Below, piece by piece: positions 1,644-26,614 of a stretch of 64,000 nt of DNA. How positions within the stretch are numbered: the first letter of the stretch is position 1; the number at the start of each line of letters is the position of its first letter. Made by a program: the position numbers and the translations under genes. The notes below the pieces were generated by a model that ran no database searches, had not been told where the DNA came from, and saw only the letters and a list, made by a program, of their open reading frames with translations. This DNA comes from a virus, in IMG/VR virus record IMGVR_UViG_3300045988_138147; one strand, written 5' to 3'.

Positions 1644-3017
1644 TTAAAATGGATTGTTATCCTCTTCAGTGCTATTACTTGATATGGGAATAATGTTCAA
1701 GTCGTAAAAGTGAGTAGATGCGGCATTGAAACCACAGATAAACTTCAATAGCCCTATATTCCTGCCTTTAGCTATATCAATCATGGCAGTTCCTTTTGTG
1801 TCCACGTCTGAAAACTCATCAGGATAACGTTTCCCTTTTACCTCGGGGCGATAAATCAGCATGACTATATCTGCTGCTTCCGCTATCTGTCCACTATCCC
1901 TTAACCTTGCCAATGTAGGTACAGGGTTAAGATTATCCCTATTCATCTGTGACAATGCAATAATCCATATATCCAAATCCTTTGCCAGATTCTTCAGCCT
2001 TCTTGCAACCTCTCCCATCTGCTGTTCTTTGTTGCTTCCCTTCATGTTAACATTCAAAATCTGTAAATAATCAACCACAGCCCCGTCTATCCCATTTTTT
2101 AATTTCATTTGACGGATTGAGGATATTATCGTGTCGATATTGGACGTGCTCCTGTCATCGAAATAGATTTGCATTTTTGATACAGTATCCACAGCTCGGT
2201 CTACATTTTCCAACTGCATACCGGAAAGCGGTGAGTAAAGTATAACATTTGAAGGAATACCACTTATCATTGAAATGATTCTAGACGTAATCTGTTCCTT
2301 CTTCATCTCCATTGAATACATGGCTATCTTAGCACCTGCTATTGCAGCGTTTTTCATCATGCTTACAGCAAGGCTAGTTTTTCCTTGGCTTGTTTCACCC
2401 GCAATTATTATCAGGTCTGATTTTTGAAGCCCGCCTGTTTTCCCGTCTATCTTGTCAAATCCGGTCGGTGTACCTGTCAATTCTGTTTTTCCCGACATGT
2501 TGCGGTTTATCGTTTCATACACGGATTCTATGCTTTCCTTGACTGTGCTGATAGAATTACAATTGGATGAGAACAGATTAGCAAGCTGGTCTGACACTTT
2601 TTGCACGACATCGGCAATATCTTCCTTCTCATTAAAAGCGTTACTGTCAAGATAACTCCCAATATCAAAAAAACGTCTTCGTATCATCAGATCATGAAGT
2701 CTGCACGCATATTGATACAGATCGAATGTGTACATTCCTGAAATCTTTACCAGCTCATATAAACTAAAGTCCGGATAGGAGAACTCCAGTTTTGATTTCA
2801 CACTGACAGCATCGGCCCTTCCTCCGGAATCTGTTATCTCCAATACAGTCCTGTATATCTGTTTGTGAAAATCGTTATAGAAACAATTTTCAGTAAGGAT
2901 ATCCCTCACTTCGTAAATGGTATCTCTCTCGCTTAGAATGGTCCCAAGAACACGTTTCTCACATTCTTCATCTCTTGGTAATATACGCATTCCACTCGGT
3001 ATTATTTCATTTTTCAT
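1644..3017 (-). CDS. dnaB: replicative DNA helicase, DnaB family
   Basis: 457 aa. Walker A in GTPTGFDKIDGKTGGLQKSDLIIIAGETSQGKTSLAVSMM. C-terminal RDSGQIAEAADIVMLIYRPE motif typical of DnaB. Confidence 0.93.
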   Translation of the reverse strand: MKNEIIPSGMRILPRDEECEKRVLGTILSERDTIYEVRDILTENCFYNDFHKQIYRTVLEITDSGGRADAVSVKSKLEFSYPDFSLYELVKISGMYTFDLYQYACRLHDLMIRRRFFDIGSYLDSNAFNEKEDIADVVQKVSDQLANLFSSNCNSISTVKESIESVYETINRNMSGKTELTGTPTGFDKIDGKTGGLQKSDLIIIAGETSQGKTSLAVSMMKNAAIAGAKIAMYSMEMKKEQITSRIISMISGIPSNVILYSPLSGMQLENVDRAVDTVSKMQIYFDDRSTSNIDTIISSIRQMKLKNGIDGAVVDYLQILNVNMKGSNKEQQMGEVARRLKNLAKDLDIWIIALSQMNRDNLNPVPTLARLRDSGQIAEAADIVMLIYRPEVKGKRYPDEFSDVDTKGTAMIDIAKGRNIGLLKFICGFNAASTHFYDLNIIPISSNSTEEDNNPF

Positions 3018-7130: not shown

Positions 7131-7447
7131 CAGAAGGGCAAATCTAGATCATCATCCTGGGAAACACTCGGAGCAGCTTCTACTTCTGTGGAAGATGGAT
7201 ATTTATTAGAATCAACAGTTTCTGATAAATCTGCTATGATGTATCTTACACCCTCTTTTCTCTCTTCTTTCTTAGGAGCGCAACTCATAAAATGAGTATA
7301 AGTAATATCTCCAAATGTAGCAGGTTCTTTCCGCTTGAAGATTGCGAAGTTTAAAAAACATCTTTCCTTACCATCTTTACACTTTACTTTCTTTATTAAT
7401 TCCTTTGGAATGTCTGATAAACAAATACTTCCTCTTAACATAATCAA
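7130..7447 (-). CDS. putative ssDNA-binding / SSB-interactome protein with SSB-type acidic tip
   Basis: C-terminus ...SQDDDLDLPF mimics the bacterial SSB tip DDDIPF. Lies between the exonuclease/annealase genes and the NinB-like gene. Confidence 0.45.
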   Translation of the reverse strand: MIMLRGSICLSDIPKELIKKVKCKDGKERCFLNFAIFKRKEPATFGDITYTHFMSCAPKKEERKEGVRYIIADLSETVDSNKYPSSTEVEAAPSVSQDDDLDLPF

Positions 7448-8013
7448 ATAAATTTTAATTTATAACCTTTTACTGTTTTACTTTTAGATCTTAATGATTT
7501 AGATACGATAGATTCGGTAACACTAAAATAAGATGAGGTTTCTTTAATGCTGTCGAATACCCTCATAAGCACATTCAATGTTGGATGATACATTCCAACG
7601 GGCTTATATTTGGCTATTGCTGTCCTATGTGTCCTTGTGCCATAATTCATATTATATTTATGGGTACACCATTCCAAATTCTCAATAGAATTGTTTGTCG
7701 GATTCTCATCCTTATGATTTATGCAAGGATAGTTATTAGGATTAGGAATGAATGCCTGTGCTACAAGTCTATAAACAAGGAATTTCCTGTTTAAATTCCC
7801 CTTACTGAGTTCAACCCTTGGTCTTCCGTCTTTTTGATAAAAAATCGTCTTTATCCTTTCAGGTACAACTTTTAATCCTCCTTTGAAGTGTGGCACATAT
7901 CTTTTCAAACTTTTCACCCTGCCTAAATTGCTTATCTGATATAGTCCTTCATATCCGACAATATCTTTCCATATCTCAATTTCTTTAGATATAGAACCGC
8001 TTAAAATTGCCAT
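7444..8013 (-). CDS. HNH homing endonuclease (NUMOD4 + HNH)
   Basis: WKDIVGYEGLYQISNLGRVKSLKR (NUMOD4) and INHKDENPTNNSIENLEWCTHKYN (HNH). Confidence 0.88.
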   Translation of the reverse strand: MAILSGSISKEIEIWKDIVGYEGLYQISNLGRVKSLKRYVPHFKGGLKVVPERIKTIFYQKDGRPRVELSKGNLNRKFLVYRLVAQAFIPNPNNYPCINHKDENPTNNSIENLEWCTHKYNMNYGTRTHRTAIAKYKPVGMYHPTLNVLMRVFDSIKETSSYFSVTESIVSKSLRSKSKTVKGYKLKFI

Positions 8014-8015
8014 AA

Positions 8016-8912
8016 TTATATTGTTTTTAATGTTACACTTCCAACTACTGGAATCTCTTTTAAATATTTCTTATACAAATCAGGATAATCTTTCTCAAAC
8101 GCCTTCTTGTCGAAATCCTTTCTGATAGTGTCCTTTTTGCGAGTAAATGATATGATATCACCTTTCCAACTATATTCACCGGCTTCTACCATAGCCATCA
8201 TTACGCCATCAGTTATTTCTTTCTTTTTATCAGACCAATATTTTGCCTGTGACACAATTTCCTGTATTGTCCTCTCCATCTTTCGGTACTCGTCAGGAAG
8301 AGTAACAGGGGATATGGAATAGGGATTCACAAACTGTCTGCCTTCCGAATCACATTTCAACAGATTCATTACAACTTCTGATGGTATTCTCTCGACTTCT
8401 ACTATCTCATGGTTTTTGCCTCTCAACCATATACCTATAAGCCTTACCGCATTGCATCCCGGATTCTGCAACTCAAAAAGGTATGCATATATACTCAACT
8501 GCCATCTTACAGATTCCTTGTCAAGTACGTAGGTGGTCTTTATATCTCCCAAAGTAAAATCAGTTTCATTTTCGCGATAAACCTTGTCGATACAGCTTGC
8601 ATAGTGCTCATTGTCAGATACAAGATATTCGGAACATTCGTACCTCAATCCCCAATCGTCTTTCAGTTCCTTGTATCCTTGTGCTTCATCGCTGTCATGA
8701 GTTATCCCCATATCATCGACAAGTTCGCAGATACTATGGATCATAGTACCTCTTTCAGCCGCTTTCCTTAACACGTCTTCGGGAACATCACGGTATTTAT
8801 CGGGGAAAAGCTGTCTGCTTATCACGGAAGTAATACCACTTAGTTCCTTATCTCCTAGCATATAAGTATGTTCATCGGGATTGAAAACGACTTGTGATTT
8901 GATTAGTTTCAT
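8016..8912 (-). CDS. PD-(D/E)XK exonuclease (YqaJ/RecB-like recombination exonuclease)
   Basis: ERGTMIHSICELVDD ... LGDIKTTYVLD ... QLSIYAYL motifs. Overlaps the ERF gene. Confidence 0.75.
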   Translation of the reverse strand: MKLIKSQVVFNPDEHTYMLGDKELSGITSVISRQLFPDKYRDVPEDVLRKAAERGTMIHSICELVDDMGITHDSDEAQGYKELKDDWGLRYECSEYLVSDNEHYASCIDKVYRENETDFTLGDIKTTYVLDKESVRWQLSIYAYLFELQNPGCNAVRLIGIWLRGKNHEIVEVERIPSEVVMNLLKCDSEGRQFVNPYSISPVTLPDEYRKMERTIQEIVSQAKYWSDKKKEITDGVMMAMVEAGEYSWKGDIISFTRKKDTIRKDFDKKAFEKDYPDLYKKYLKEIPVVGSVTLKTI

Positions 8913-9481
8913 TTCAGTTCTCCTTTCCTTCTTGTCACCGCTTCAACAAAATGTTTGTCACTCTGTAATTCCTTATAATTTCCCCATACTACCTGTAATG
9001 TTTCGATTGACAGGCTTGATCTTACTTCCTGCAATGCCATCGCAAGGAAATCTGTTTCCTCTGGTATCGTGCTGTCAGGGTCCTTTTGCTCTTCTGTAGG
9101 AATCAGGAACAATTGAAGCAAAGAATATTTCAACGCTATGCTCATTGCTTTATTCATTCCTTTGTCACCTGCGTCCATCGCTTCACCTACATTTACAGTC
9201 TCCACAAAGCTGCCATCAGTGGTCATATACCTAAACTTTATCGTAGCCCTTGTGAATGTGTTCGTACCGCCGGATTTCGTTATCCTATTCTCCGTTGTGA
9301 AGTTCTGCACTTCCTGTAGTATGAACACCTCATTTTTTGAGAATAATTCATGAAGTTCGTTCATAACGTTGTCAATCCCACGGAATTTGAATCCCTGTTG
9401 CTGGTTCTTCTCCGATTTGGTGATAGCCTTTGTCTCTTTAAGGATATTGGCTATCTTACTGTATATTAACTGTTCACTCAT
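8909..9481 (-). CDS. erf: ERF-family single-strand annealing protein
   Basis: KAITKSEKNQQQGFKFRGIDNVMNELHELFSKNEVFI fits the ERF N-terminal pattern. Confidence 0.75.
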   Translation of the reverse strand: MSEQLIYSKIANILKETKAITKSEKNQQQGFKFRGIDNVMNELHELFSKNEVFILQEVQNFTTENRITKSGGTNTFTRATIKFRYMTTDGSFVETVNVGEAMDAGDKGMNKAMSIALKYSLLQLFLIPTEEQKDPDSTIPEETDFLAMALQEVRSSLSIETLQVVWGNYKELQSDKHFVEAVTRRKGELK

Positions 9482-12137: not shown

Positions 12138-12446
12138 TTATTTCCCTATTGCAGTTATTGAAATGCTATTAGACTCCCAGTCTGTGGTAGTCGAGTAATT
12201 AGATATATCAGCAGGTTTCCTTGTTTTTTTTACGTAGCAAACCAATGAAACTGCCGAATGGCATTCTCTTGGATTTCCCAAAATGAATGTCTTTGTCTTT
12301 CCCGGTCTGATTTTTAAAATATCCTCTACTGTAACTTTCATATCTTTATTTGATTTTATTATCACAACAGTAGGCATGGTTTGCGAATTTTCGCTATATT
12401 TGCGATTGACGATTGCGATAAGGAGCGAATTATATCCGCATCCCAT
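12138..12446 (-). CDS. first gene of the leftward early operon, hypothetical (alternative start MPTVVIIK at 12377)
   Basis: ORF track. Divergent from the XRE repressor. Confidence 0.55.
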   Translation of the reverse strand: MGCGYNSLLIAIVNRKYSENSQTMPTVVIIKSNKDMKVTVEDILKIRPGKTKTFILGNPRECHSAVSLVCYVKKTRKPADISNYSTTTDWESNSISITAIGK

Positions 12447-12483: not shown

Positions 12484-12537
12484 TTATCGTAATAACACGA
12501 ATATGAAATACGATTTTTAACAAGTTTTATACGATAA
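12484..12537. promoter_or_regulatory. candidate operator half-sites (TTATCGTAA 12484-92; ATACGAT 12508-14; TATACGATAA 12528-37, inverted)
   Basis: Repeated TACGAT(A)/TATCGTA in both orientations between the divergent genes. Confidence 0.4.
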
Positions 12538-12953
12538 TGAATAGGAAAGATATTGGTTATAGGCTTAAATCCTTTATTAAGTCGCAAGGGCTAACACAAA
12601 GTACCCTTGCGATGCAAATGGGTAAAACACAGTCTGAAATATCAGAAATGATAAGTGGAAGAAGAAGATTCGAGCCACTTGCTACATATTTATGTGATAA
12701 ATACGGGGCAAGTATGGATTATTTCATTACAGGTGAAGAAAACAAGTTGAGCGATATTATCGCAAACAACGAAGAAGTAAGGAACGGATTATCGCATGAT
12801 GATAAAGTACAATTGCTTGATAAACTGGAAAGCTTGTATGAAAGACACCAAGCAATCCTGAAAACGATAAGCGATGCCACCAAAGAGAGTGGTGAGGTCT
12901 TAAAAGAGATAGCAACAATAAATAAATTGCTGATAGTTGGAACTCAAATTTAG
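12537..12953 (+). CDS. XRE-family HTH repressor (CI-like)
   Basis: IGYRLKSFIKSQGLTQSTLAMQMGKTQSEISEMISGRR is a canonical XRE HTH. Coiled-coil C-terminal half. Divergent from the early operon. Confidence 0.85.
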   Translation: MNRKDIGYRLKSFIKSQGLTQSTLAMQMGKTQSEISEMISGRRRFEPLATYLCDKYGASMDYFITGEENKLSDIIANNEEVRNGLSHDDKVQLLDKLESLYERHQAILKTISDATKESGEVLKEIATINKLLIVGTQI

Positions 12954-12956
12954 TGT

Positions 12957-13685
12957 TTGTATTACATGGATATTATGTGCATTGTTGAGTTTTTAAACAA
13001 AAATCAAGGAGTATTGAGCTTTCTTGTTTTCCTATTATTTGCTGTGTACATTTTGGCGGGCAATATAAAAAGGGTAAATAAGTTCATTCCTTGTATGAAT
13101 ATGATATTTGCTATATGCGCTTTTATTTTTAGCGTCTTATCATTGTGTTGGTCGTTCCCAAGAACAAATTTGGAGTTTGACTATATTGGATTTATATTAG
13201 GTGCACTATCTTTTCTCGTTGCAATATTGGCAATTATGTTCGGGTATAATATATTCAATTTTCAAGGTGAAATAAATAGGGGAATAGATAAGAAACTTGA
13301 AAAGGTAAAGGAAGAATGCTTAATTGAGACATATAGCAATTCAATAATTGAATCCGATTCTATGATGAAATATTATCTTGAAAATAAAAAGTGGAATGAA
13401 ATTCTGATATTAAAAAAGATAAATATGCTCAGGGAATTGAATTTGTCGGAAATTTCATGTTCTCATAGCATAAAAACTGATGGAGTTTTGCAGTTAACAA
13501 AAAGCATTATTGAGAATAGTGATACTTTTGATGATGGAACATATAACAATTATGTATTATATATGGATGTATTTAAGCGATTTTGTAAGGGGGCAGATAA
13601 TGCTCTTAATCTTTATAATGAATATATGGAGAAAAAGAAAAAACGTATTCATAACACAGAAATTGTACCAAATGAAATTCCGTAG
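12957..13685 (+). CDS. multi-pass membrane protein with cytoplasmic C-domain (likely ATG at 12966)
   Basis: Three hydrophobic helices (VLSFLVFLLFAVYILAG, MIFAICAFIFSVLSLCW, IGFILGALSFLVAILAIMFGY). Starts 4 nt after the repressor stop. Confidence 0.7.
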   Translation: MYYMDIMCIVEFLNKNQGVLSFLVFLLFAVYILAGNIKRVNKFIPCMNMIFAICAFIFSVLSLCWSFPRTNLEFDYIGFILGALSFLVAILAIMFGYNIFNFQGEINRGIDKKLEKVKEECLIETYSNSIIESDSMMKYYLENKKWNEILILKKINMLRELNLSEISCSHSIKTDGVLQLTKSIIENSDTFDDGTYNNYVLYMDVFKRFCKGADNALNLYNEYMEKKKKRIHNTEIVPNEIP

Positions 13686-13740
13686 CGATTCTTTCGACAT
13701 GTATTTTGAAGAAATAGCTTATAAATAAAATAATAATGAT

Positions 13741-14697
13741 ATGGCAAAACCGAGAGTTTTTATAAGTTCTACATTCTATGACCTAAAAACAATAAGACTT
13801 GAATTGGATAAGTTCTTAAAAAGTTTAGGATATGAGTCTGTAAGAAACGAGAAAGGAGATATACCGTATGGTTCCACTGAATCTATGCAGTCTTATTGTT
13901 ATAAGGAAATTTCAAATATTGATATATTAGTTTCTATTATTGGAAGTCGTTTTGGGTCTCCAAGCGAAAATGACAAGAGTCGCTCTGTTTCAAACATAGA
14001 ATTAAAAACAGCAATAGAGCAAAATAAACATGTATTTATTTTCATCGAAAAAAGTGTGTTTATTGAATATGAGACATATTTACTAAATGAGGATAGCGAT
14101 AAAATAAAATACAGATATGTTGATAATGCAAACACATACAAATTCATAAAGGAAATAAAAGCACTTAAAGCCAATAATAATATAAAAGAGTTTGAAAATG
14201 TAGATGATATAATATCTTATTTGCGTGAGCAATTTGCCGGACTAATGAAGCAGTTTTTTATACAAGAACAAAGACTTGGAGAAATAAATTTGATAAAGGG
14301 TATAAATTCGACTGCAAGTACATTAAAAGAATTAGTTGACTATATTCAAAACACAAATGAAAGCCAAAAAGAGAATTTGAAAGAAATTATAAAAACATTC
14401 CATCCTATTATAGGGGAGCTAAAGGAAATGCTTCACATACCTTACAAGTTTTATATCGAGGAATATAAAGATTTGAAAAATTTGTTAGAGTCAAGAGGCT
14501 TTAATCTGATAGACCATATCCAAGGAGAAAGTGGTAGTTTTGTTTTTGAAAAAGAAAAGGATAGTATATCTTCTTATAGAATGACTATTGATAAATTTAT
14601 ATTTGATAAAGATATGACCCTAAAACCGTTTCAACCCAATGAATGGAAATATTCATTTATAAAGATGGAAGAGCATTGTGATGAATTACCATTTTAA
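13741..14697 (+). CDS. DUF4062 (TIR-like) domain protein with uncharacterised C-domain
   Basis: PRVFISSTFYDLKTIRLELDKFL ... DILVSIIGSRFGS ... SNIELKTAIEQNKHVFIFIEK ... FENVDDIISYLREQFAGL track the DUF4062 consensus (VFISSTF.DL..ER, Y.LI.G.RYGS; from memory). Confidence 0.75.
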   Translation: MAKPRVFISSTFYDLKTIRLELDKFLKSLGYESVRNEKGDIPYGSTESMQSYCYKEISNIDILVSIIGSRFGSPSENDKSRSVSNIELKTAIEQNKHVFIFIEKSVFIEYETYLLNEDSDKIKYRYVDNANTYKFIKEIKALKANNNIKEFENVDDIISYLREQFAGLMKQFFIQEQRLGEINLIKGINSTASTLKELVDYIQNTNESQKENLKEIIKTFHPIIGELKEMLHIPYKFYIEEYKDLKNLLESRGFNLIDHIQGESGSFVFEKEKDSISSYRMTIDKFIFDKDMTLKPFQPNEWKYSFIKMEEHCDELPF

Positions 14698-14780
14698 TAA
14701 ATTGAAATAATTAACCCATTAAAAGCAACATTATAGACAATGTTTTTTTCTCATATTCTTCCATTTCTTTAAAATTTTGG

Positions 14781-14975
14781 GTGATGTTCGTACATGAAAG
14801 AAAAGAGACTGTGGGTAACTATAAAGCATGGATGGTTTCTTGGGTCTTTCATTGCGCTTTGATAGGGATCGCGGTCATGTTAAGAAGAACGTTGTCAAGT
14901 TGTGAGCGGCAAAGTTATAAAAAAAGAATACAAACTGAAATAACTAAAAAGATGGAACGTATCGTTTTATTATGA
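14781..14975 (+). CDS. possible small TM protein (64 aa, non-ATG start in track)
   Basis: The stop overlaps the next ATG (ATGA). Hydrophobic WMVSWVFHCALIGIAVML. Weak support. Confidence 0.3.
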   Translation: MMFVHERKETVGNYKAWMVSWVFHCALIGIAVMLRRTLSSCERQSYKKRIQTEITKKMERIVLL

Positions 14976-15289
14976 AAAGTGTTAATAAATTCATAACAGA
15001 GAATAAAGGGGTATTATCTTTGTTTGGAATTTTACTTGGTATAGTATTTAGTGCAGGATTATTCGTTGGTTCTAACAATATGGATAGATATGATACTATA
15101 AAATATGGTCATGAAAGTCTTGATAAAAGAACTAACAAAATTGAAGGTCAAATAAATAATATACAAGAACAAGTAAAAGACATTCAAAATAAGATTGAAA
15201 GTTTACGAGATGATATTCATAAGAACGCTGAAAAGCAACAAGATAATATTCATAAATTGGAAATAGAATTTTATAAAAATAAAAAGTGA
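14972..15289 (+). CDS. single-TM coiled-coil protein (105 aa)
   Basis: VLSLFGILLGIVFSAGLFVG followed by heptad-like IEGQINNIQEQVKDIQNKIESLRDDI. Confidence 0.7.
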   Translation: MKSVNKFITENKGVLSLFGILLGIVFSAGLFVGSNNMDRYDTIKYGHESLDKRTNKIEGQINNIQEQVKDIQNKIESLRDDIHKNAEKQQDNIHKLEIEFYKNKK

Positions 15290-15290
15290 T

Positions 15291-15812
15291 ATGAGCAATA
15301 AGAACTATACAATAAGTAAATATTCAATAGTTTATACTTTGTCTATTTTTATAGGGTTAACTTCATTGATTTTTATATATTATTCTTCAAGGAATAGTGA
15401 TTTCCTTAAAAATGAATTAGCGCAAAAAGAATATAATATAAACATTCTAAATGAAAAAATAAATGAATTACAAGAAATATACAAAAAAAAATATGACGAA
15501 AAATCTGAAAACATATGTTTAGTGTCATATAGTTTTAATATAAAGCGTAGTAAGTTAGTTGTAAAATATAACAATAAGTTTAATCTAAAAAATGGAGATA
15601 GAATTGAACTTACTTATAAGAATGGGAATGTAAAAACGACTATTGAGCTATATGTTTCAATAGACCCCAACATAGATAAAACAGATAAGTCTGATTTTAT
15701 AATAAGCTATGGGGATTTACGCATATTGACAAATAGAAGAAAAAACACAAAGGGCATTTATGAAATGACATTTAAGAGAACTACAACAGATAGTGTAACT
15801 GATAATAACTAA
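15291..15812 (+). CDS. single-TM protein with coiled-coil and beta-rich C-domain (173 aa)
   Basis: IVYTLSIFIGLTSLIFIYY followed by LAQKEYNINILNEKINELQEIYKK. Starts 2 nt after the previous stop. Confidence 0.7.
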   Translation: MSNKNYTISKYSIVYTLSIFIGLTSLIFIYYSSRNSDFLKNELAQKEYNINILNEKINELQEIYKKKYDEKSENICLVSYSFNIKRSKLVVKYNNKFNLKNGDRIELTYKNGNVKTTIELYVSIDPNIDKTDKSDFIISYGDLRILTNRRKNTKGIYEMTFKRTTTDSVTDNN

Positions 15813-15817
15813 TAAAT

Positions 15818-15847
15818 CAGTGCGATAATCGCTGAGTTATCGCACTG
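15818..15847 (+). terminator. perfect 11-bp hairpin closing the accessory operon
   Basis: CAGTGCGATAAtcgctgagTTATCGCACTG, 6 nt after the stop at 15812. No clear T-run. Confidence 0.55.
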
Positions 15848-15942
15848 AAAAATTATAAACAATGAACATATACAACATCATTAGTAAAAAACGAAATGAT
15901 TAAGGAAAATAGAAGGGTTACTTTTGGATAACTAACATCAAA

Positions 15943-16371
15943 TCATTCCAATTGTATCTTATTTTTTTTGCAATATTTCTCAAAAGCACGCTTCCCACCT
16001 TTAATACATTTTACATCAACTCTTATTTCATTACTCCCCAATTTTATTTGAAGCATCTTTAAAGGAGGTGTTTTCTGAATCATAAATTCATATTCACAAT
16101 CGTCCGGGACTTGTTGTTTATCTACAAAATTATAAAACAATTTAATCTCGTTATACACATCTTGCGGACTACCAGATTTCACATGAAAGCCATTCCCCCA
16201 AAATGATTTCATAAAATCAACGGAAAAAACTTCTCTCCCATCATCATATTTTGTTGATGTTATAGAATATCCGCATTGAGAATATATGGAAACCACCTCC
16301 TTGGCGCAAATTTTAGTGTTAAATCCTAAAGATAAACAAGTTAATAAGAAAATTAATAAGCTATTCTTCAT
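15943..16371 (-). CDS. secreted/lipoprotein-like hypothetical protein
   Basis: Signal-like MKNSLLIFLLTCLSLGFNTKICA from the ATG at 16371. Confidence 0.6.
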   Translation of the reverse strand: MKNSLLIFLLTCLSLGFNTKICAKEVVSIYSQCGYSITSTKYDDGREVFSVDFMKSFWGNGFHVKSGSPQDVYNEIKLFYNFVDKQQVPDDCEYEFMIQKTPPLKMLQIKLGSNEIRVDVKCIKGGKRAFEKYCKKNKIQLE

Positions 16372-16413
16372 ATGATATAATTTTAAGTTAGTAATATTCA
16401 AATATCTATTCTT

Positions 16414-16799: not shown

Positions 16800-17054
16800 A
16801 TGGAAACAGTAATAAGAAAACAAACATCGTTCCGGCTACGTGAAGATTTGCTTCAAGTATTGCAGGAACACGCAAAGAAGGCAAACAGAAGCCTAAACAA
16901 TTTTGTAGAGAGCACTTTGATGGATGCGATGTATTCTTCACCAAATGAAGAAACGGTTGCAGCCATAAACGAAGCGCGTTCTGGCAAGTATTCTGGAACG
17001 ATAGACACTACAGATTTTGATTCATTCATGAAATCTATCAACGAAATAGAATGA
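16800..17054 (+). CDS. ribbon-helix-helix antitoxin (RelB/DinJ-like)
   Basis: TSFRLREDLLQVLQEHAKKANRSLNNFVESTLMDAM is a typical RHH. Overlaps the toxin gene by 4 nt. Confidence 0.8.
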   Translation: METVIRKQTSFRLREDLLQVLQEHAKKANRSLNNFVESTLMDAMYSSPNEETVAAINEARSGKYSGTIDTTDFDSFMKSINEIE

Positions 17055-17320
17055 AGACGATCCGTTATAGTACAAAGGCAAAGAAAGATTTGAAGAAGTA
17101 TAGGAATGACGTCCAGCTAATGAAAGCCTTATATGATATATTGAAAAAGTTAGCAAACGGTGACATCCTTCCCAAAGAATATAAAGCACATGCCCTAATA
17201 GGAAACTACAAGGACTGCAGGGAATGCCATATCAAAAATGATTTTCTTCTGATATGGATGGACACAGAACACGATGCAATAGAAGTTATCAGAATCGGAA
17301 GTCATTCCGAATTGTTCTAA
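17051..17320 (+). CDS. yafQ: YafQ/RelE-family mRNA interferase toxin
   Basis: KAHALIGNYKDCRECHIKNDFLLIWMDTEHDAIEVIRIGSHSELF matches the YafQ motif (H.L.G....RE.HI..D.LLIY......RTGSHSDLF). Confidence 0.85.
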   Translation: MKTIRYSTKAKKDLKKYRNDVQLMKALYDILKKLANGDILPKEYKAHALIGNYKDCRECHIKNDFLLIWMDTEHDAIEVIRIGSHSELF

Positions 17321-17785: not shown

Positions 17786-19009
17786 TCATGATTTAGACTT
17801 TTTTAAGCCACCCGATATATAATCTATCACTTTCCTGTTAGCCTCATCAATCTTATCCCTGTCGAAATCAATGTATATATCTGTAACATCACAACCAAAG
17901 GAGTGTCCCAAAGCTAAAGATATCACATCTTTAGGGACATCCGCCTTATGTGCTAACGTAGCCCAGGTATGCCGGGCCCAATATGTTGAAAGTTCGGGGA
18001 ACAATGGTTGCTTACTCTTTTTCCCACCAAGCCCTTTTCGTTCAAACGGACCTATCCCTTTAAGATTCTTATTCATCCTATGGGTAAAATCATGATAGTC
18101 TCCATAGTTATCTAATATATCTAGCAAATGAGTTTTACCTTGATACCTATCCAATATAGCTTGTGCTTCCGGCTCTATTTTAATAGAGTAAAACTTCTTT
18201 GTTTTCTGCCGATAATATTCTATACGTCCATCTATTATATCCTTGTGTTCAAGTAAAAGCAAATCACCTATATTTATTCCAACAAGATATACAATCAACA
18301 TAAATATATCCCTGTATTTCTTTTCAAACTCCTCACAAGGATAATCACGCAATAATCTCAATTGTTCAACAGATAAAGCACGTTTTCTAGTTTCTTCTTT
18401 TTTTATCTTATACTTTCGAAAAGGATATAAGGTAGTAATTTCTTCATCAATAGCATAATTGAATACTGCACGAATGTTACGCAGGTGAATAGAATAAGCG
18501 TTTACTTTCATCCCTGATTCAGCCATCCAACTTTCAAAATTAGACAGCCATTTCCTATCCATTGTGTCAAAGGTGCATTCCGGATCATATTCAAGCAGTT
18601 TATTTCTAGTTGTATTATAAACCGTTTTTGTTCCTGTATTACTCTTTATGGAAACAAACTCATCAAGATAATCTATAAAACATCTTGTTTTTTTTACAAC
18701 CTTTTCATCAAATACATATTCGCTGATTATCTCCTTGGCTTTAGCGGAAGGCAAAGAAGATAATCTAGCTTCATCGTCAATAATCAACTTTTCAGCTTTA
18801 TTCTTCAAACTGACAAGCCTTACATTCTTCACTTTATACTGTGGTACAGATTTGTCCAAATAAGACACTTCATTAAACTTTTCAGAAGACGGTGTAGATA
18901 TTCCGGTGGAGAAAACAAACCTCGTTTTCCCTATCCGTATCACAAGAAGAATCATCTGAGACCCATCCTTCTTTGCTCTTGTATCAGGTATCAATCTTAC
19001 TGTTGCCAT
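17786..19009 (-). CDS. int: tyrosine integrase (likely start MATVRLIPD at 19009; the track extends to 19108)
   Basis: WARHTWATLAHKADVPKDVISLALGHSFGCDVTDIYI contains the R-H..R / GH / Y catalytic pattern. Adjacent to the tRNA fragment. Confidence 0.9.
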   Translation of the reverse strand: MATVRLIPDTRAKKDGSQMILLVIRIGKTRFVFSTGISTPSSEKFNEVSYLDKSVPQYKVKNVRLVSLKNKAEKLIIDDEARLSSLPSAKAKEIISEYVFDEKVVKKTRCFIDYLDEFVSIKSNTGTKTVYNTTRNKLLEYDPECTFDTMDRKWLSNFESWMAESGMKVNAYSIHLRNIRAVFNYAIDEEITTLYPFRKYKIKKEETRKRALSVEQLRLLRDYPCEEFEKKYRDIFMLIVYLVGINIGDLLLLEHKDIIDGRIEYYRQKTKKFYSIKIEPEAQAILDRYQGKTHLLDILDNYGDYHDFTHRMNKNLKGIGPFERKGLGGKKSKQPLFPELSTYWARHTWATLAHKADVPKDVISLALGHSFGCDVTDIYIDFDRDKIDEANRKVIDYISGGLKKSKS

Positions 19010-19013
19010 TGTT

Positions 19014-19030
19014 TTGTGACGTTTTTGTGA
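19014..19030. repeat. 17-bp direct repeat TTGTGACGTTTTTGTGA, copy 1 (candidate arm-type site)
   Basis: Identical to 19242..19258. Confidence 0.85.
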
Positions 19031-19140
19031 CGATAAAGATACATAATACCCCCCAAATAACCATCTTAAACGGAATATTTTCTTTGATAATAATATAAAA
19101 AAAAGCACTTACCATTAGATAAGTGCTTGATATTCAGCAG

Positions 19141-19690: not shown

Positions 19691-20971
19691 CTACTGTCTG
19701 AGGTATTTTTCCGGAGATTTTTGAGGTTTTATTTGATTTTGTTTTACATTCCTGCGCTTAGAATATATTTGGTTAGCCCTTGTCAGATCCTTGATGACCG
19801 TTTCATCGAACACCTCGGAATATATCTCTGTTGTCTTGACCGATGTATGCCCCAAGAGTTTTTGGACGGTGGTTATCGGAACGCCTTGATGTACCAACAG
19901 AGTAGCACAAGTGTGTCTGCTGGTATGGTAGGTGAACTTCTTGCCGATATGCGCCATTCTTCCCAATTTCTGCAATGTCCGATTAGTGTCCGAATTGCAA
20001 CCTAATGCAGCCAGTTGTTCGATGCTGTCGTACTTCCGCATTATGCCCAGTGCCTTTCCGTTAAATAATAGATATAGCGGGATATTAAGTTTCACGCCTG
20101 TTTTGACGCTGTTCAACACTAACCATTCTTTTCCGTCTATCGTTATCAGATTTTTATAGGTAAGTTGTTTAAAATCGGAGAATCTCAATCCGCAATAGCA
20201 GCAGAAGAGAAATGCGTCCAGTATGTGCCGGCTGTTGTTCTTCCTGTCCGGCAGTTTAAGATTTTCCAATTTTTCCAAGTCGACGGGCATTAGGAAGTTA
20301 TGTTCCTTCTTCTCCCGCTTGATCTTGAACTTACGGAAAGGATATGCCTCCTGTAATATATAACCTTCATTTATTGCTTCGTTGACCAAGGTACGAAGTA
20401 TTCTCATGTGTTTCCCTACCGTGTTTACTTTCAATCCCTTGTTGCGGAGGAATGCGTCAAACTCCTTTAGAAACGTATAATTGATGTCCGTGAACTCTAT
20501 CACGTTCCGAAATTCCTTCAATGTGGCTACTGTGCCCAGCATGTTATCCTTGGTTCCCGGTTTCCTATCGGAATTCACTATAACCTGTTGGGCGAACTTA
20601 AGAAACGAAACCACGGGTTTTACCCCCTTCCTTACAGCTTCCTTCAATGTGGATAAGTTAGATTCAAGACCTCTCTTCCAATAGCTTAACTCTATAGCCT
20701 GTAATTCCAATATATGCTCATATAGCATTGCATTAAGTTCTTGCGACTGCGGATGGTTGATTACTTGGGCACCATCCTTACTCCAACATTCCGGCTTTAG
20801 ATAGACATTGGTTTTAAAGTATACCTTCCTCTGATTCAGATAGGCTTCTATTTGTACAAGGGCTGTCCCCTGTCGGTTTAACTTGTTTTGCCGGTTATAA
20901 ACTAAACGATATCTGATCTTCTCTAACATACTCAACTTTTTGTTTTTAAAGTTAAAAAAATTCTTCTGCAT
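19691..20971 (-). CDS. second tyrosine recombinase (candidate shufflon/inversion recombinase)
   Basis: GLRFSDF ... YHTSRHTCATLLVHQGVPITTVQKLLGHTSVKTTEIYSEV contains the R, H..R, GH and Y catalytic pattern. The start lies 27 bp from the outermost crossover motif. Confidence 0.9.
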   Translation of the reverse strand: MQKNFFNFKNKKLSMLEKIRYRLVYNRQNKLNRQGTALVQIEAYLNQRKVYFKTNVYLKPECWSKDGAQVINHPQSQELNAMLYEHILELQAIELSYWKRGLESNLSTLKEAVRKGVKPVVSFLKFAQQVIVNSDRKPGTKDNMLGTVATLKEFRNVIEFTDINYTFLKEFDAFLRNKGLKVNTVGKHMRILRTLVNEAINEGYILQEAYPFRKFKIKREKKEHNFLMPVDLEKLENLKLPDRKNNSRHILDAFLFCCYCGLRFSDFKQLTYKNLITIDGKEWLVLNSVKTGVKLNIPLYLLFNGKALGIMRKYDSIEQLAALGCNSDTNRTLQKLGRMAHIGKKFTYHTSRHTCATLLVHQGVPITTVQKLLGHTSVKTTEIYSEVFDETVIKDLTRANQIYSKRRNVKQNQIKPQKSPEKYLRQ

Positions 20972-22896: not shown

Positions 22897-25800
22897 TTAC
22901 TCAATTAAATCCATACGTGTTATATACCAATGGTTGTTAAAGGCCTTCATCTCCAAAACATAAGGCCTTGCCATCTGAATTTCTGTCTTATTGTTATATG
23001 ATCCCGCCAGTCCGCAGAAATAGTTCGTAGCCTTGTACTTGTCCGGATTCTTAGCCACCCTTGATGTCATGTCTACTACAAACTCCAGTTTCAATCCGTT
23101 CCATGATGATGCGGGAGGAAGGGTTATGGTTCCGCCAAGACCATCAGCAGAAAAGAATGTAGATCCCTGAGTGGAAGGATTCACAGTCATGTTACCTTCC
23201 GAATCAGCCAGATTATCCATATCGCTTCCCGGTGAATAGAAGAGAGTGGCGGTGATTATACCTGTCACATTTGCCTTCGTGGAAACAAATTCACCCAGTT
23301 CATTCACCCGGTACGGAGCACTGCCCGGAACACCACCGCCAGCCCATATCCTTACAGGTGTCGTACCGGCTTCCTTGCTGCTTCCTCCTGTAAGACCGGC
23401 TACAACATTGTTATTTGAGTCCTTTATTATCAGTTCATTGCCTTGGACGAAATCAAGACTGGCGTTCTTGGCAATAATAAGACTGGTATAGATAGGACCA
23501 ACATTACTTAATTCCGTCCAGTAGGTAGTGTTGGTATAGGTTATAGAAGACGAAGATGTATGTGTTTTAATACACTTATAAACATCCCATCCGTCCACCA
23601 CACTATTGTTTCTCACCATTACGATATCAATATACCGCGTGCCGCTTGTAAGGGCTTCGTCATTTCTGTACGTTACCCCGGTTGTCCATTCGGAATCCCG
23701 TATGATACAGCCCTGTATTCCTTGTACGCCCTGATCTCCCTTATCTCCTTTGTCCCCCTTTTCACCATCATCACCCTTGTCGCCTTTTTCTCCGGTATCG
23801 CCCTTCTCAGCCCATACGTCATATTCGGCTGTATTCACTTCACCCGTCAAGCAGTATCCGCCATCGCTGAACGTGAACCGGTTGCCGGCATTATCCGTCC
23901 AACACCACAAGGGAGGATTCGTAGTGGATGCCTTGGCTACATAAGAGCCACCACCCATCGAAACGACACCCATCTTGGGAACGACCATTCCGGTCTTGAA
24001 CTGCCCCATTTGGGTGTAACCCTGTCCATCCACGCCATCCTGAATCATCGGCACGCTCTCTATATCAACCAATACACCTTTCGCATCATAGAATGAAAAT
24101 ATGATTTTGGAAGAAATGGATGAAGAAGGAATAGAGGCACCATTACTGGTACTGATTTCAGAACCGTTATCTATGGCGTATTTCAAGGTTCCATCCGTAG
24201 TGACTTCCGAAACACCGCCAACTGTTTTCATCCTCGTTGCAGAAATCCCGGAAACGGAATACGTACCGTCTTTCTTCTTCACAATATTGCTCGCCGAAGT
24301 GACCAGACTATACAATACCGCATTCTTACCGCCACGTACACCGGCAAGCGTGAACTTGAGTACACGTGACTGTTCCACACCGTCAGCCATAGCCTTCACG
24401 GTAATTGATATCTCAGTACGGTCAGCAAGAGCCGTTCCTTTCGCTACAGATAATGTAATATCACCCGTAGACAAGTCATAAGAGGATGTTACACCTGTCA
24501 CGCTCTGCACGGATATGGAGGAAAGGGAAAGCTTTGTTGCTCCGTTCCACATGGATGCTGTTGTCGTAATTGACACCTCATCCACAGTTTTCCCATTTTC
24601 GTCCAATGCAGCATTATCCATCTGGTTATCCAAGTCGGCACTGATCGCATTGAACGAATGGTTAGCCCACGGTTCGGGAGTAGAGAAAGCACCCCATATA
24701 CCGTCCTTCTTCGTTCTTTTGCTTACCCATTCATAGGGTATGCTTGCCGACACGCCTACAGGATCATCATTCCAGCCGGAAGGCACATAATCGTCAGTCT
24801 GTGATGTTTCCGGAGTGGAAGGTCTTGTATTCGTCGTGGTGTTCGTGAAGATAAACTCATGATCTTTCGCATCCCTTCCGTCTTTTCCGCTTTGGACAAG
24901 AAGTTCATATTCATCGGTATTTATCTCTCCTGTAAGACAATAACCGCCATCGCTGAACGTAAACCGGTTGCCGGCATTGTCCGTCCAGCACCATAAGGGA
25001 GGATTTGTAGTGGCTACCTTGGAAAGGAATGAACTTCCTCCCATTGTAACGATACTCATTTTGGGAACAACCAAGCCGGAATACCACGGACCGCTATTGG
25101 TCACGCTCACACCGTCCTTTCCCGGTGCTCCCGGTGTTCCCGTATCACCTTTAGACGCAATTTCCAGCCAGTCGCCATTAGATCCCGGTACAGAGGACGA
25201 ACCATCCTCATTGATACACGCCCACATGCTTCCGTTATAAGACAAGCTGTCGTAGTAATCGTAATGTACGCCAGGTATATAGCCTTCCTCACGGAAATTC
25301 AAAGTCTGCACAGGTGTTCCATCCGGCTTTATCTGCTTGATGATACCTGTCATATATATATTATTCAGATACATGGAATAACCGTCCATGTTCAGTCCGA
25401 ATATATTCAGATTGGAAAGGTCGCCATATTGTAGGGCAACATTGGCGGCGGAGATCTCCCATGTATTCTGTTTCCACAACATACGGGTGTAAGTCCTTGT
25501 TTCGTAGACTGAGGTCTGGCGCTCCGTATTAGTGAAACTGCCGTATGCCACGAAAGTCATCATCTCAAAAGGATCGAAAGAAGAAGACCACGATGAAGAA
25601 GTGGGGCGCAACTGGTACTTGAATGTTTCGTTTCTTTCACCTGTAACTTCCGTAACCGTGAAATAGACTGTACAGAATCCGGCAAAACGTCTGTTGCCCT
25701 TTCCATCGTCGTAATCCTCCGTAGCGTTCCCGGTGATGTTATGATAGATACCCATACAGATATCTCCTACTGCGACAGCACCAATCTCACCATCTTCCAG

Positions 25801-26481
25801 CTTAAGTGTACATGTCTTGGTCCCTGTATCTACCGTTTCTATAATGCCGGCTCCGGGCGCACGCCACTTGTCGCCCAGCGTGACCATCACACGATTGTAT
25901 CTTAATTCGGGAACTTCGAGAAACCGGCGGATAAACATGCTCTCAAACTCCCCATGCCCTGTATCGAATATCTTGGCTCCGAATCCGGTTAAGCCGCTTG
26001 CAAAACCATTCTTTCCGAAAACAGCACCGGCAAACATACTGAGAAGAAATTTAGTGGAATCCGCCACGTCCTTCCGCAAGAATATCTCTTTCAGCTTCTC
26101 CGCACTGTTCTCTATCTCAGTCATTACACGCAACGCGCTCATCACATCTTCATCGGTGTAGGTGATATCTTCGTCACCCTGCTTTACGATGCGGTTTATC
26201 AGGTTTCCTGCTATCTTAAGCCCCTTAAGGTAATTAATGATCCCTTGCGCATCATCATCGTTCAATGCGGATAAGAACCAGTTTTGTACAGGTGTGTCCT
26301 CATCCAGCGTATATGCGGAATTGGCATGATCGGCATTGGTGACATCACCGCCGCCACCACTGCCGCCACCGCCGTTCTGCTTTATCTCTTCAACCTCAAT
26401 GGAGATCTTGCTAAAGTTGCTGTTGATGCGGTCTGCCGTTTCGCTCCAAGTTCCTGTTTTGTTTATTGTATTAAGCTCCAT
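22897..26481 (-). CDS. collagen-like tail fibre protein (likely start MELNTINK at 26481; the track extends to 26511)
   Basis: G-X-Y runs GDTGEKGDKGDDGEKGDKGDKGDQGVQGIQG and GDTGTPGAPGKDG. N-terminal module shared with 29577..29915. Carries an internal ~60-aa duplication. Confidence 0.85.
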   Translation of the reverse strand: MELNTINKTGTWSETADRINSNFSKISIEVEEIKQNGGGGSGGGGDVTNADHANSAYTLDEDTPVQNWFLSALNDDDAQGIINYLKGLKIAGNLINRIVKQGDEDITYTDEDVMSALRVMTEIENSAEKLKEIFLRKDVADSTKFLLSMFAGAVFGKNGFASGLTGFGAKIFDTGHGEFESMFIRRFLEVPELRYNRVMVTLGDKWRAPGAGIIETVDTGTKTCTLKLEDGEIGAVAVGDICMGIYHNITGNATEDYDDGKGNRRFAGFCTVYFTVTEVTGERNETFKYQLRPTSSSWSSSFDPFEMMTFVAYGSFTNTERQTSVYETRTYTRMLWKQNTWEISAANVALQYGDLSNLNIFGLNMDGYSMYLNNIYMTGIIKQIKPDGTPVQTLNFREEGYIPGVHYDYYDSLSYNGSMWACINEDGSSSVPGSNGDWLEIASKGDTGTPGAPGKDGVSVTNSGPWYSGLVVPKMSIVTMGGSSFLSKVATTNPPLWCWTDNAGNRFTFSDGGYCLTGEINTDEYELLVQSGKDGRDAKDHEFIFTNTTTNTRPSTPETSQTDDYVPSGWNDDPVGVSASIPYEWVSKRTKKDGIWGAFSTPEPWANHSFNAISADLDNQMDNAALDENGKTVDEVSITTTASMWNGATKLSLSSISVQSVTGVTSSYDLSTGDITLSVAKGTALADRTEISITVKAMADGVEQSRVLKFTLAGVRGGKNAVLYSLVTSASNIVKKKDGTYSVSGISATRMKTVGGVSEVTTDGTLKYAIDNGSEISTSNGASIPSSSISSKIIFSFYDAKGVLVDIESVPMIQDGVDGQGYTQMGQFKTGMVVPKMGVVSMGGGSYVAKASTTNPPLWCWTDNAGNRFTFSDGGYCLTGEVNTAEYDVWAEKGDTGEKGDKGDDGEKGDKGDKGDQGVQGIQGCIIRDSEWTTGVTYRNDEALTSGTRYIDIVMVRNNSVVDGWDVYKCIKTHTSSSSITYTNTTYWTELSNVGPIYTSLIIAKNASLDFVQGNELIIKDSNNNVVAGLTGGSSKEAGTTPVRIWAGGGVPGSAPYRVNELGEFVSTKANVTGIITATLFYSPGSDMDNLADSEGNMTVNPSTQGSTFFSADGLGGTITLPPASSWNGLKLEFVVDMTSRVAKNPDKYKATNYFCGLAGSYNNKTEIQMARPYVLEMKAFNNHWYITRMDLIE
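23818..23995. repeat. internal duplication, copy 2 (VVPKMGVVSMGGGSYVAKASTTNPPLWCWTDNAGNRFTFSDGGYCLTGEVNTAEY)
   Basis: Aligned by eye with 24905..25080. Long identical runs (ccatcgctgaacgt, aaccggttgccggcatt). Confidence 0.8.
24905..25080. repeat. internal duplication, copy 1 (VVPKMSIVTMGGSSFLSKVATTNPPLWCWTDNAGNRFTFSDGGYCLTGEINTDEY)
   Basis: See copy 2. Confidence 0.8.
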
Positions 26482-26614
26482 ATATTCTGTTCTACTTTTA
26501 CCATTCCGCATCCGGATGTACTTCTACGGACAGATGGTTCATTATTCTGATGATTAATTCTCGTATCATAAATATATGTTTTGAGTGTTACTGATAACTT
26601 TCCGGGTTACTCTA

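Follow-up and report, generated by a model that had tools for sequence, protein, structure and literature searches.

The lysogeny module of a Bacteroidales-type phage raises the question of whether the run of AT-rich genes behind its CI-like repressor forms one defense system or an assortment of independent cargo. The phage fills the window, the whole 64,000-nucleotide (nt) stretch of DNA analyzed here (IMG/VR record IMGVR_UViG_3300045988_138147), which is a complete temperate phage genome. An earlier note on this DNA had described the run as a cassette of four or five genes, in which a multi-transmembrane (TM) protein, a TIR-like DUF4062 protein of 318 amino acids (aa) and two single-TM coiled-coil proteins make up a candidate defense or exclusion system. 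The comparative data point elsewhere: the functional unit is probably the single DUF4062 (NIR) gene at 13741-14697, encoding a TIR-like, NADase-type defense protein, with its neighbors as separate, interchangeable cargo. What the locus holds is a new, repressor-linked, sensor-divergent lineage of a single-gene family described only months earlier, and not a new four- or five-gene system.

The 318-aa protein matches Pfam PF13271 (DUF4062) with E=1.3e-15 and 57.7 bits (cut-off 24.7) over residues 5-91, covering the entire 82-position model, and its structural TIR-like domain reaches about residue 152 in the AlphaFold model and by Foldseek; the length of about 180 aa first proposed for the domain was roughly right. 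In the AlphaFold model (63 homologs), a five-strand beta-alpha core (residues 1-152) is followed by a stalk helix (154-205) and an alpha/beta AUX domain (about 220-318), the latter reaching a predicted local distance difference test score (pLDDT) of 87-93 when modeled separately. Foldseek compares the N-terminal domain best with the plant TIR of RPS4 (E=1.9e-5), and further with NDT, DNPH1, SARM1 and the TIR-APAZ protein of SPARTA. No STAND NTPase, TPR or HEAT repeat domain was found in the protein by Pfam or in the model. The protein is a self-contained unit of DUF4062/TIR-like core, helical stalk and its own AUX domain, and the earlier reading of it as a standalone DUF4062/TIR-like protein with a C-terminal domain of its own is upheld by Pfam, by Foldseek and by the fold search with the AUX domain.

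Sequence conservation singles out a putative active site within this unit. A family search returned at least 1215 clusters at E<1e-3 (clustered at 90% identity), with almost all of the top 120 full length and all listed matches carrying PF13271, and the architecture of about 320 aa is kept at 35-100% identity in Bacteroidota, Bacillota, Acidobacteriota, Chloroflexota, Nitrospirota and Proteobacteria. Glutamate E87 is invariant in 90/90 homologs, down to 35% identity, as are F7, S9, S10, T11 and D14; the N-terminal motif reads V-F-I-S-S-T-F-Y-D-L (FISST), with its first phenylalanine at the F11 position of the characterized relative Eva01. In the model, E87 lies on the helix that follows strand C (residues 83-93), the placement known from TIR NADases. 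The AUX domain has its own invariant residues, namely H221-P222, W302 and the C-terminal L-P-F tail (P-F end), and it turns up with the DUF4062 core only. An exhaustive AUX-only profile search found 354 representative clusters, all of the same ~320-aa architecture or fragments of it; because no other architecture was found, core and AUX domain can be taken, at the level of sequence, as one co-inherited module. One candidate for a new AUX fusion, the 494-aa protein P0142, was rejected, being a Peptidase_C25 (gingipain-like) fragment in frame with the second half of a DUF4062 protein, and thus a truncation/recombination chimera or an assembly artifact. Compared with PDB and BFVD, the AUX model gave no significant fold match, the best being a small alpha/beta fold like that of SIRV AcrID1 (E=0.03-0.25); it is predicted to be unlike a classical winged helix, and by sequence the domain resembles nothing in PDB, including KpSwz, the Swarozyc protein discussed below.

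The DUF4062 gene is autonomous. In a comparative set of about 190 loci (labeled L006, L102 and so on), 149-154 of which hold DUF4062 homologs, distant phages share the DUF4062 gene only, with nucleotide homology starting 12-20 nt before its ATG. One homolog of 53% identity (P0098; gene 6001-6954 in L010-L015) is all the cargo that a small integrative mobilizable element carries beside its relaxase, MobC, primase, VapE, HTH_17 genes/excisionases and integrase, and this element occurs in 369 blocks of the collection, at differing chromosomal sites; another 53%-identical homolog stands alone beside an Eco47II restriction-modification system. Chromosomal homologs adjoin TIR-NLR, GmrSD, a PtuA/AriA-like ATPase, ThsB, Schlafen-type proteins, PDC-M26A and PDC-S41. 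Among 97 non-redundant full-length homolog loci, a same-strand TM neighbor of any sort is present at 14, and the homolog loci show no conserved cognate partner of antitoxin type beside DUF4062. Defense-island and mobile-element contexts, together with the published function of the family, make the 318-aa protein a strong defense candidate; the suggestion of a defense role thus holds for the DUF4062 gene, though not for the cassette as a whole.

Other members of the set suggest ways in which DUF4062 genes may move and recombine. At L006-L008, elements of the IS66 insertion sequence (IS) family (TnpB_IS66 plus a DDE transposase) lie directly up- or downstream of a 63%-identical DUF4062 gene, which suggests IS-mediated movement or disruption around it. 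Another phage DUF4062 lineage (L123-L149, e.g. L124 1422-2546; 354-379 aa, about 30-37% core identity, helical C-terminal region) is a late-region moron, flanked by the small terminase gene and a sigma-70-region-4 late regulator, and not part of a lysogeny module. Natural examples of module swapping are L122, where a gene at 8001-8939 joins the same core lineage (53% identity) to a different C-terminal region, and L136 (7583-9119), where the 137-aa HTH_19 repressor also found at L022, L107 and L109 precedes a DUF4062 protein of another lineage (372 aa, 29% identity), whose C-terminus is still G-L-P-F.

It is the layout of the block that gives the impression of a single multi-gene system (Table 1). 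All the same-strand, tightly spaced open reading frames (ORFs) placed behind the repressor in the earlier note are present at the positions it gave, with spacings, from the repressor on, of 3-12 nt, 55 nt, 83 nt, a 4-nt overlap and 1 nt. The block at 13-16 kb is as AT-rich as had been judged by eye, with a guanine-cytosine (GC) content of 0.24-0.29 vs 0.39 for the phage (3-TM gene 0.290, DUF4062 gene 0.285, 105-aa gene 0.248, 173-aa gene 0.239; for comparison, repressor 0.362, whole phage 0.392, structural genes 0.439). It closes on a single strong hairpin, which is real, with a stem of 12-13 base pairs (bp) at 15817-15848 and not the perfect 11 bp at 15818-15847 first described; its folding free energy is -18.9 kcal/mol (z=-5.97; 0/200 shuffles fold as well). 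It has a T-run on the minus-strand side and an A-run after it on the plus strand, and is likely a bidirectional terminator. After the DUF4062 gene, the search for an intrinsic terminator turned up nothing beyond a weak 6-bp stem with a U7 run behind it, which does not stand out from shuffled sequence, and the 274-nt gap to the 105-aa gene (14698-14975 region) gave no Rfam match and no significant structure; Rfam and tRNA scans over the whole window were likewise without matches.

Table 1. Features of the repressor-proximal block and of the surrounding phage genome (positions in the window)
Feature	Position	Strand	Remarks
Replication/recombination module	1-12 kb	minus	DnaB helicase 1644-3017; ERF 8909-9481
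Lysogeny module	12.5-21 kb		begins with the XRE repressor
XRE-type helix-turn-helix (HTH) repressor, 138 aa	12537-12953	plus	CI-like by position; first gene of presumed lysogen-expressed operon
3-TM protein, 239 aa (ATG) or 242 aa (TTG)	12966-13685 (ATG) or 12957-13685 (TTG)	plus	gene callers favor ATG at 12966
DUF2971 (PDC-S31) gene, 3' remnant	13659-13728	plus	intact in sibling phage L102
DUF4062 protein, 318 aa	13741-14697	plus	PF13271
E87 codon (GAA), putative catalytic glutamate	13999-14001	plus	alignment to Eva01 E87
Doubtful 64-aa ORF, GTG start	14781-14975	plus	no family matches
105-aa protein, one TM helix and coiled coil	14972-15289	plus	hydropathy; coiled-coil family matches
173-aa protein, one TM helix, short coiled coil and beta-rich C-terminal part	15291-15812	plus	
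Hairpin between convergent genes	15817-15848		
Secreted-type protein, 152 aa, convergent	15943-16401	minus	hydrophobic N-terminal signal-like segment
RHH (ribbon-helix-helix) antitoxin (84 aa) and YafQ/ParE-family toxin (89 aa)	16800-17320	plus	toxin PF15738, E=2e-28
DUF6965 gene			lysogeny module; after the toxin-antitoxin pair, before the integrases
Tyrosine integrase 1	17786-19108	minus	SAM_5 domain; catalytic-domain match weak
Tyrosine integrase 2	19691-20971	minus	Arm-DNA-bind_5, SAM_5 and full catalytic domain
Portal	33937-35460		packaging/portal/tail genes
TerL	35985-37616		packaging/portal/tail genes
Tape measure	43572-48941		packaging/portal/tail genes

Taken at face value, one strand, tight spacing, low GC throughout and a single terminal hairpin would fit a TIR-plus-TM defense or exclusion system built from the DUF4062 enzyme, the 3-TM protein and both single-TM coiled-coil proteins, in which the enzyme signals to, or is controlled by, membrane effectors. 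The hydropathy scan finds three TM helices in the 239-aa protein and one each in the 105-aa and 173-aa proteins, and the 105-aa protein has many coiled-coil family matches. The distribution of the genes, however, argues strongly against such a system. When the cassette proteins were compared by tblastn with the 149-154 DUF4062 loci, the neighbors recurred only in near-identical copies of the window phage. The 173-aa protein is an ORFan, with two homolog clusters, both at 93% identity or above, in 5.8 billion proteins, and the 105-aa protein occurs in the window phage only, among 2.9 million viral contigs. PADLOC (2023) and PHROGs returned no match for the 3-TM, 64-aa, 173-aa and 152-aa proteins, and for the coiled-coil proteins weak, architecture-level ones to LmuB, LeoBC and Rz-like spanins (for the 105-aa protein, PHROG 739 at E=1.3e-4), which leaves the cassette without a PADLOC match as a system. 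Add to this the scarcity of TM neighbors of any sort, the solitary occurrence of DUF4062 on the mobilizable element and in defense islands, and the fact that characterized DUF4062+AUX proteins function as single genes. The multi-gene model is largely refuted by these comparisons already, and we consider it highly improbable; the proposal that the four or five genes form one unit does not survive them. The 105-aa protein is cargo specific to its lineage and possibly of exclusion type. The 64-aa GTG-start ORF may not be a gene: its GC content is 0.364 within a region of 0.22-0.29, it is frameshifted in L103 and called in only some contigs, and it has no family matches in Pfam, PADLOC or PHROGs. 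The convergent 152-aa protein is also without family matches in these three libraries, and the 173-aa protein has no significant ones there.

One point in favor of a joint system is that the DUF4062, 64-aa, 105-aa, 173-aa and convergent 152-aa genes are co-inherited with the sibling phage L102 as a block of 98.8% identity (window 13659-16405, DUF4062 through the 152-aa gene). The same comparison places the 3-TM gene outside the shared block and reveals an exchange of cargo. The L102 repressor allele is 34% identical to that of the window, and in place of the 3-TM gene L102 has a 258-aa DUF2971/PDC-S31 gene at 7212-7988 (DUF2971, E=9.6e-10; PDC-S31, a PADLOC candidate, E=9e-33). Homology by blastn starts at window 13659, corresponding to L102 7919, inside that 258-aa gene, and the peptide tails match; the window retains the last 70 nt of the PDC-S31 gene (13659-13728), which read in the alignment as the visible scar of cargo replacement. 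L102 also has other genes where the window has its toxin-antitoxin pair, and an HSDR_N protein is further cargo of the slot. At the same repressor-proximal hotspot, the related phage L164 (6623-8451) has a gene for a ParA-like AAA_31 ATPase and, behind it, one for a RelA_SpoT-domain protein of 232 aa, which looks like a small alarmone synthetase or toxSAS-like gene.

A narrower alternative would keep only the 3-TM gene as a companion, in a facultative two-gene partnership confined to a Bacteroides-phage sub-clade, with the 3-TM-family protein as anchor, second effector or modulator of DUF4062. Members of this family do adjoin DUF4062, upstream in the window and downstream at L016, L150/151 and L157-159 (gaps of -20 to +15 nt), and stand directly beside it in 4/7 sampled metagenome contexts. 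Yet among 27 IMG/VR contigs with the 3-TM family (11 distinct proteins), DUF4062 lies within 5 kb in a single case, which is the same phage; the family occurs without DUF4062 at L152, L153 and L160-162, gene order varies between contexts, and most DUF4062 homologs have no 3-TM neighbor. The window copy has its nearest relative in L152, a prophage that lacks DUF4062, and co-divergence of the two families was tested and not found. The family itself is small, numbering just 18 homolog clusters with nothing in common beyond a TM core of about 70 aa; a near-invariant two-helix membrane hairpin (GFDYIGxIxGxLSFLVAxLAIMFGYNI) is joined to C-terminal parts that are unrelated between copies. In many Bacteroides-type phages it follows the repressor directly (gaps of -23 to +3 nt; L152, L153, L160-L189). 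Both families thus favor the slot directly downstream of the repressor, and we read their adjacency as co-residence in a hotspot, which makes a partnership unlikely. The 3-TM proteins are a family in their own right, possibly of exclusion type; an assignment to DUF4231/SLATT was discarded (Pfam E=0.089, 13.7 bits vs a cut-off of 24.7, with nothing else in support).

The single-gene interpretation gains a biological setting from the repressor. The repressor of the window matches Pfam HTH_3 (E=1.3e-5) and PHROG families of transcriptional regulators and repressors (best E=1e-10), and it is oriented divergently from the minus-strand early genes, all in keeping with the CI-like XRE protein originally proposed. 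In many phage loci, a repressor gene lies 0-9 nt upstream of DUF4062 (L022, L075, L104, L105, L106, L109, L114, L136, L150), and the gene is found directly behind at least eight different prophage repressors. Besides the 137-aa HTH_19 protein mentioned above, these include a 127-aa HTH_3 protein (L104), proteins of 115 aa (L105) and 130 aa (L106), a 97-aa HTH_3/CI-type protein (L075) and, in proteobacterial prophages (L114, L115), a 224-aa Peptidase_S24 repressor of CI/LexA type followed by a 43%-identical DUF4062; the 129-aa protein upstream in L150 has no HTH match in Pfam. The placement behind the repressor, which the earlier note had likened to that of lambda rexAB, is therefore recurrent across many phage loci. 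A Bacteroides -7 motif (TAnnTTTG) lies upstream of the repressor at 12395 and is absent directly upstream of DUF4062 and of the 105-aa gene; a full -33/-7 pair was not found, and a sigma-70 promoter scan gave matches at chance level. Because neither a terminator nor a -7 motif was found in the interval from repressor to DUF4062 in the window, co-transcription with the repressor in a lysogen is reasonable to assume, and the DUF4062 gene is most likely co-transcribed with it and so expressed in lysogens.

Position and conservation could also be reconciled with a protein that is not anti-phage at all. DUF4062 might be an addiction or stabilization module, or a phage-serving enzyme that tunes NAD+/nucleotide pools or the lysis-lysogeny decision. 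Addiction would also explain why a small mobilizable element of very wide distribution has it as its one cargo gene, a YafQ toxin-antitoxin pair lies near it, the fold is common to nucleoside 2-deoxyribosyltransferases and DNPH1 hydrolases, and several eukaryotic DUF4062 proteins are without NADase activity. Nevertheless, homologs show no conserved antitoxin-like partner, their neighbors are enriched in known defense genes, in line with the published enrichment of the family, and the AUX domain, sensor-like in character, is tied strictly to the core. Moreover, each of the five bacterial DUF4062 systems for which a phenotype could be detected is an anti-phage NADase system that depends on the Glu. 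A non-defense role is on this evidence quite unlikely.

A defensive mechanism can be sketched for the DUF4062 protein by analogy with Swarozyc and Evangelion. The protein would be expressed in the lysogen and kept inactive until its AUX domain recognizes a cue from a superinfecting phage. The stalk would then pass a rearrangement or oligomerization to the core and so activate it, NAD+ would be hydrolyzed, and the infected cell would arrest or die before the phage cycle ends (abortive infection). The 3-TM, 105-aa and 173-aa proteins, the convergent secreted protein and the YafQ toxin-antitoxin pair would be separate cargo of a repressor-to-integrase hotspot, in which some of the TM/coiled-coil proteins may be of the superinfection-exclusion type. 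A wider hypothesis, which we advance only tentatively, is that the window protein represents a distinct DUF4062 lineage of very wide distribution (over 1,200 clusters at 90% identity, from Bacteroidota to Proteobacteria and Acidobacteriota) with an AUX fold unseen in solved structures, which would sense a cue unlike the portal (Swarozyc) or recombination intermediates (Eva01). In temperate phages its gene would be hard-wired to the repressor operon, making abortive infection by NADase a lysogenic-conversion trait of gut Bacteroides prophages, in a slot acting as a general defense hotspot that exchanges DUF4062 lineages, PDC-S31, 3-TM and toxSAS-like genes.

Several points weigh against a single-gene NADase defense. 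The full-length model is only moderately confident (pLDDT 70.6), co-transcription with the repressor is argued from gene spacing, and the adjacency of 3-TM-family genes in metagenome contexts noted above could speak for a partner. The 318-aa protein has no match in PADLOC (2023) or PHROGs, which is expected because both libraries predate the discovery of DUF4062 defense. The evidence for NADase function comes from characterized relatives outside the window lineage, and the window family aligns to Eva01 or Swarozyc only over residues ~5-104 (26-29% identity, hhalign probability 92-94%), with no sequence similarity in the second half of the core or in the AUX domain. The Q/W/E motif present in KpSwz and Eva01 is not conserved in the window family, where M49-Q50-S51 occupy the aligned positions. 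In addition, the human DUF4062 proteins NWD1, NWD2 and NPHP3 were inactive as NADases in vitro. For Eva02, defense could not be detected (10.64898/2026.06.25.731849).

Elsewhere in the window, the tandem integrases suggest two nested or adjacent elements, or a degenerate duplicate, and a 1204-aa ORF in the tail region (22897-26511, minus strand) with a collagen triple-helix repeat (E=5e-6) is probably a tail fiber. A DUF4062 protein identical to that of the window occurs in gut metagenomes, where one source labels it 'Caudoviricetes sp.'. Among GenBank phages, neither nucleotide nor protein searches turned up a relative of the region that is annotated, the sole matches being 57 nt to Bacteroides phage BS-TP2 and an Acinetobacter phage protein of 24.5% identity.

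Bacteroides prophages are abundant in the human gut, and their defense cargo is little known. If the single-gene interpretation is correct, the DUF4062/NIR family of NADase defenses would gain a large Bacteroidota-centered lineage with its own sensor domain, and the gene's place in the repressor operon would predict lysogen-specific immunity to other gut phages, with relevance to phage therapy and to phage-host dynamics in the microbiome. The repressor-proximal slot would likewise be a hotspot to mine for further defense genes. A false lead is removed as well, the apparent TIR-plus-TM multi-gene system being an accident of hotspot co-residence.

How does the window protein compare with known systems? 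Rst_2TM_1TM_TIR, to which the cassette had been likened, is a three-gene TIR-plus-TM system. The likeness is superficial, consisting of a TIR-like protein beside multi-TM and single-TM proteins on a phage-derived element, and it was not borne out: the window domain is DUF4062 and not a canonical TIR, no PADLOC model matches, and the TM genes are not kept as partners from locus to locus. In lambda, rexAB, and in temperate phages of lactococci and streptococci, the sie genes, are expressed in lysogens, with or beside the repressor, and protect against other phages; RexAB is a two-protein sensor plus ion channel. The window resembles them in position and logic, its lysogeny-module genes being placed behind or near the repressor, and its small membrane-anchored proteins between repressor and integrase are like Sie in both position and architecture. 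There is no sequence or fold relationship, however, and the effector of the window would be a soluble NADase-type enzyme.

Closer counterparts are found among the DUF4062 systems of three 2026 preprints, none of which (Swarozyc, Evangelion, NIR) mentions Bacteroides or repressor-linked prophage lineages. The earlier statement that the combination is not a named system no longer holds for the key gene, as these preprints name single-gene DUF4062+AUX systems; for the cassette, the status of a system is unsupported. Osinski et al. (bioRxiv 10.64898/2026.05.01.722283) describe DUF4062 proteins as TIR-like NADases. Their KpSwz (Swarozyc, from Klebsiella pneumoniae; PDB 10wc/11cq/11cv) consists of a core, a stalk and an HTH/winged-helix portal-binding AUX domain, with catalytic E97; it is autoinhibited, and activation by the phage portal leads to NAD+ depletion and aborted infection (10.64898/2026.05.01.722283). 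Ibarra-Chavez et al. (bioRxiv 10.64898/2026.06.25.731849) describe Evangelion, single-gene DUF4062+AUX systems on plasmids, prophages and satellites, of which Eva01 requires F11, E87, W162 and the AUX domain and is escaped by mutations in recombination genes. Le Mouellic et al. (bioRxiv 10.64898/2026.09.04.749371) give the domain the new name NIR and describe Avs2-NIR, Vulcan (NIR+HEAT) and Vesta (the small NIR protein VstA with the alkaline phosphatase VstB). Across these preprints, mutation of the equivalent Glu abolishes defense in Eva01, KpSwz, PsAvs2, Vulcan and Vesta, and NADase activity or NAD+ depletion is reported for KpSwz, Eva01 (by metabolomics), PsAvs2, Vulcan, Vesta and TEP1.

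With Swarozyc, the window protein shares its nature as a single protein of nearly equal size (326 aa for KpSwz vs 318 aa), its order of DUF4062 TIR-like core, helical stalk and compact C-terminal AUX domain, and its occurrence in defense islands. The FxSSTF-D motif and the catalytic Glu align, and the S-F-T-E motif of KpSwz is matched, E87 lying within two residues of KpSwz E97 in an S-x-T/S-x-x-E segment. In contrast, the window profile reaches 10wc at only E=0.0095 (hhalign 94%, 29% identity over about 96 columns of the N-terminal core only, residues ~5-100), and the AUX domains, compared by sequence, have no detectable similarity; for reference, a Swarozyc homolog from a Vibrio plasmid matches KpSwz over its full length at E=2e-97. 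The trigger of KpSwz is the portal, and a repressor-linked prophage context is not described for Swarozyc.

Eva01, represented here by the protein of S. aureus pMW2 (WP_000072390.1), is likewise a single-gene DUF4062 core plus AUX protein on a mobile element, of 324 vs 318 aa, and its F11 and E87 align with F7 and E87 of the window. The strict co-inheritance of AUX and core in the window family is as the Evangelion authors propose, and prophages are among their DUF4062 contexts. Yet the BLASTP alignment reaches 26% identity over 105 aa (E=3e-4), that of hhalign spans columns 7-103 only, and the AUX domain aligns nowhere; Eva01 and the Swarozyc type are mutually much closer (36% over 166 aa, E=2e-31), and the window lineage stands further from both. 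The window protein also has no counterpart to the G-W-I-R segment around W162 of Eva01, and at the position of the Q/W/E motif, which the authors treat as DUF4062-specific (10.64898/2026.06.25.731849), its family has E/Q-x followed by a near-invariant Y52-C53-Y54-x-E56 (Q/E-x-Y-C-Y-K-E).

The NIR systems have in common with the window the PF13271 effector family and its conserved catalytic Glu, and VstA resembles the window protein as a small NIR protein with a C-terminal domain that could bind a ligand. The alkaline-phosphatase partner of Vesta was not found in the window or at about 150 DUF4062 homolog loci; a single 'Metalloenzyme' neighbor (L083) was dismissed as a phosphopentomutase-like gene unique to that locus. 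Unlike Vulcan and Avs2-NIR, the C-terminal 170 aa of the window protein form a stalk helix and a small alpha/beta domain, with no HEAT, STAND NTPase or TPR part. By sequence comparison, then, the 318-aa protein lies outside the Swarozyc and Eva01 lineages and has none of the partner genes or fused domains by which Vesta, Vulcan and Avs2 are recognized, while it belongs to the DUF4062/NIR superfamily and to the broad class of single-gene systems that pair this core with an AUX domain.

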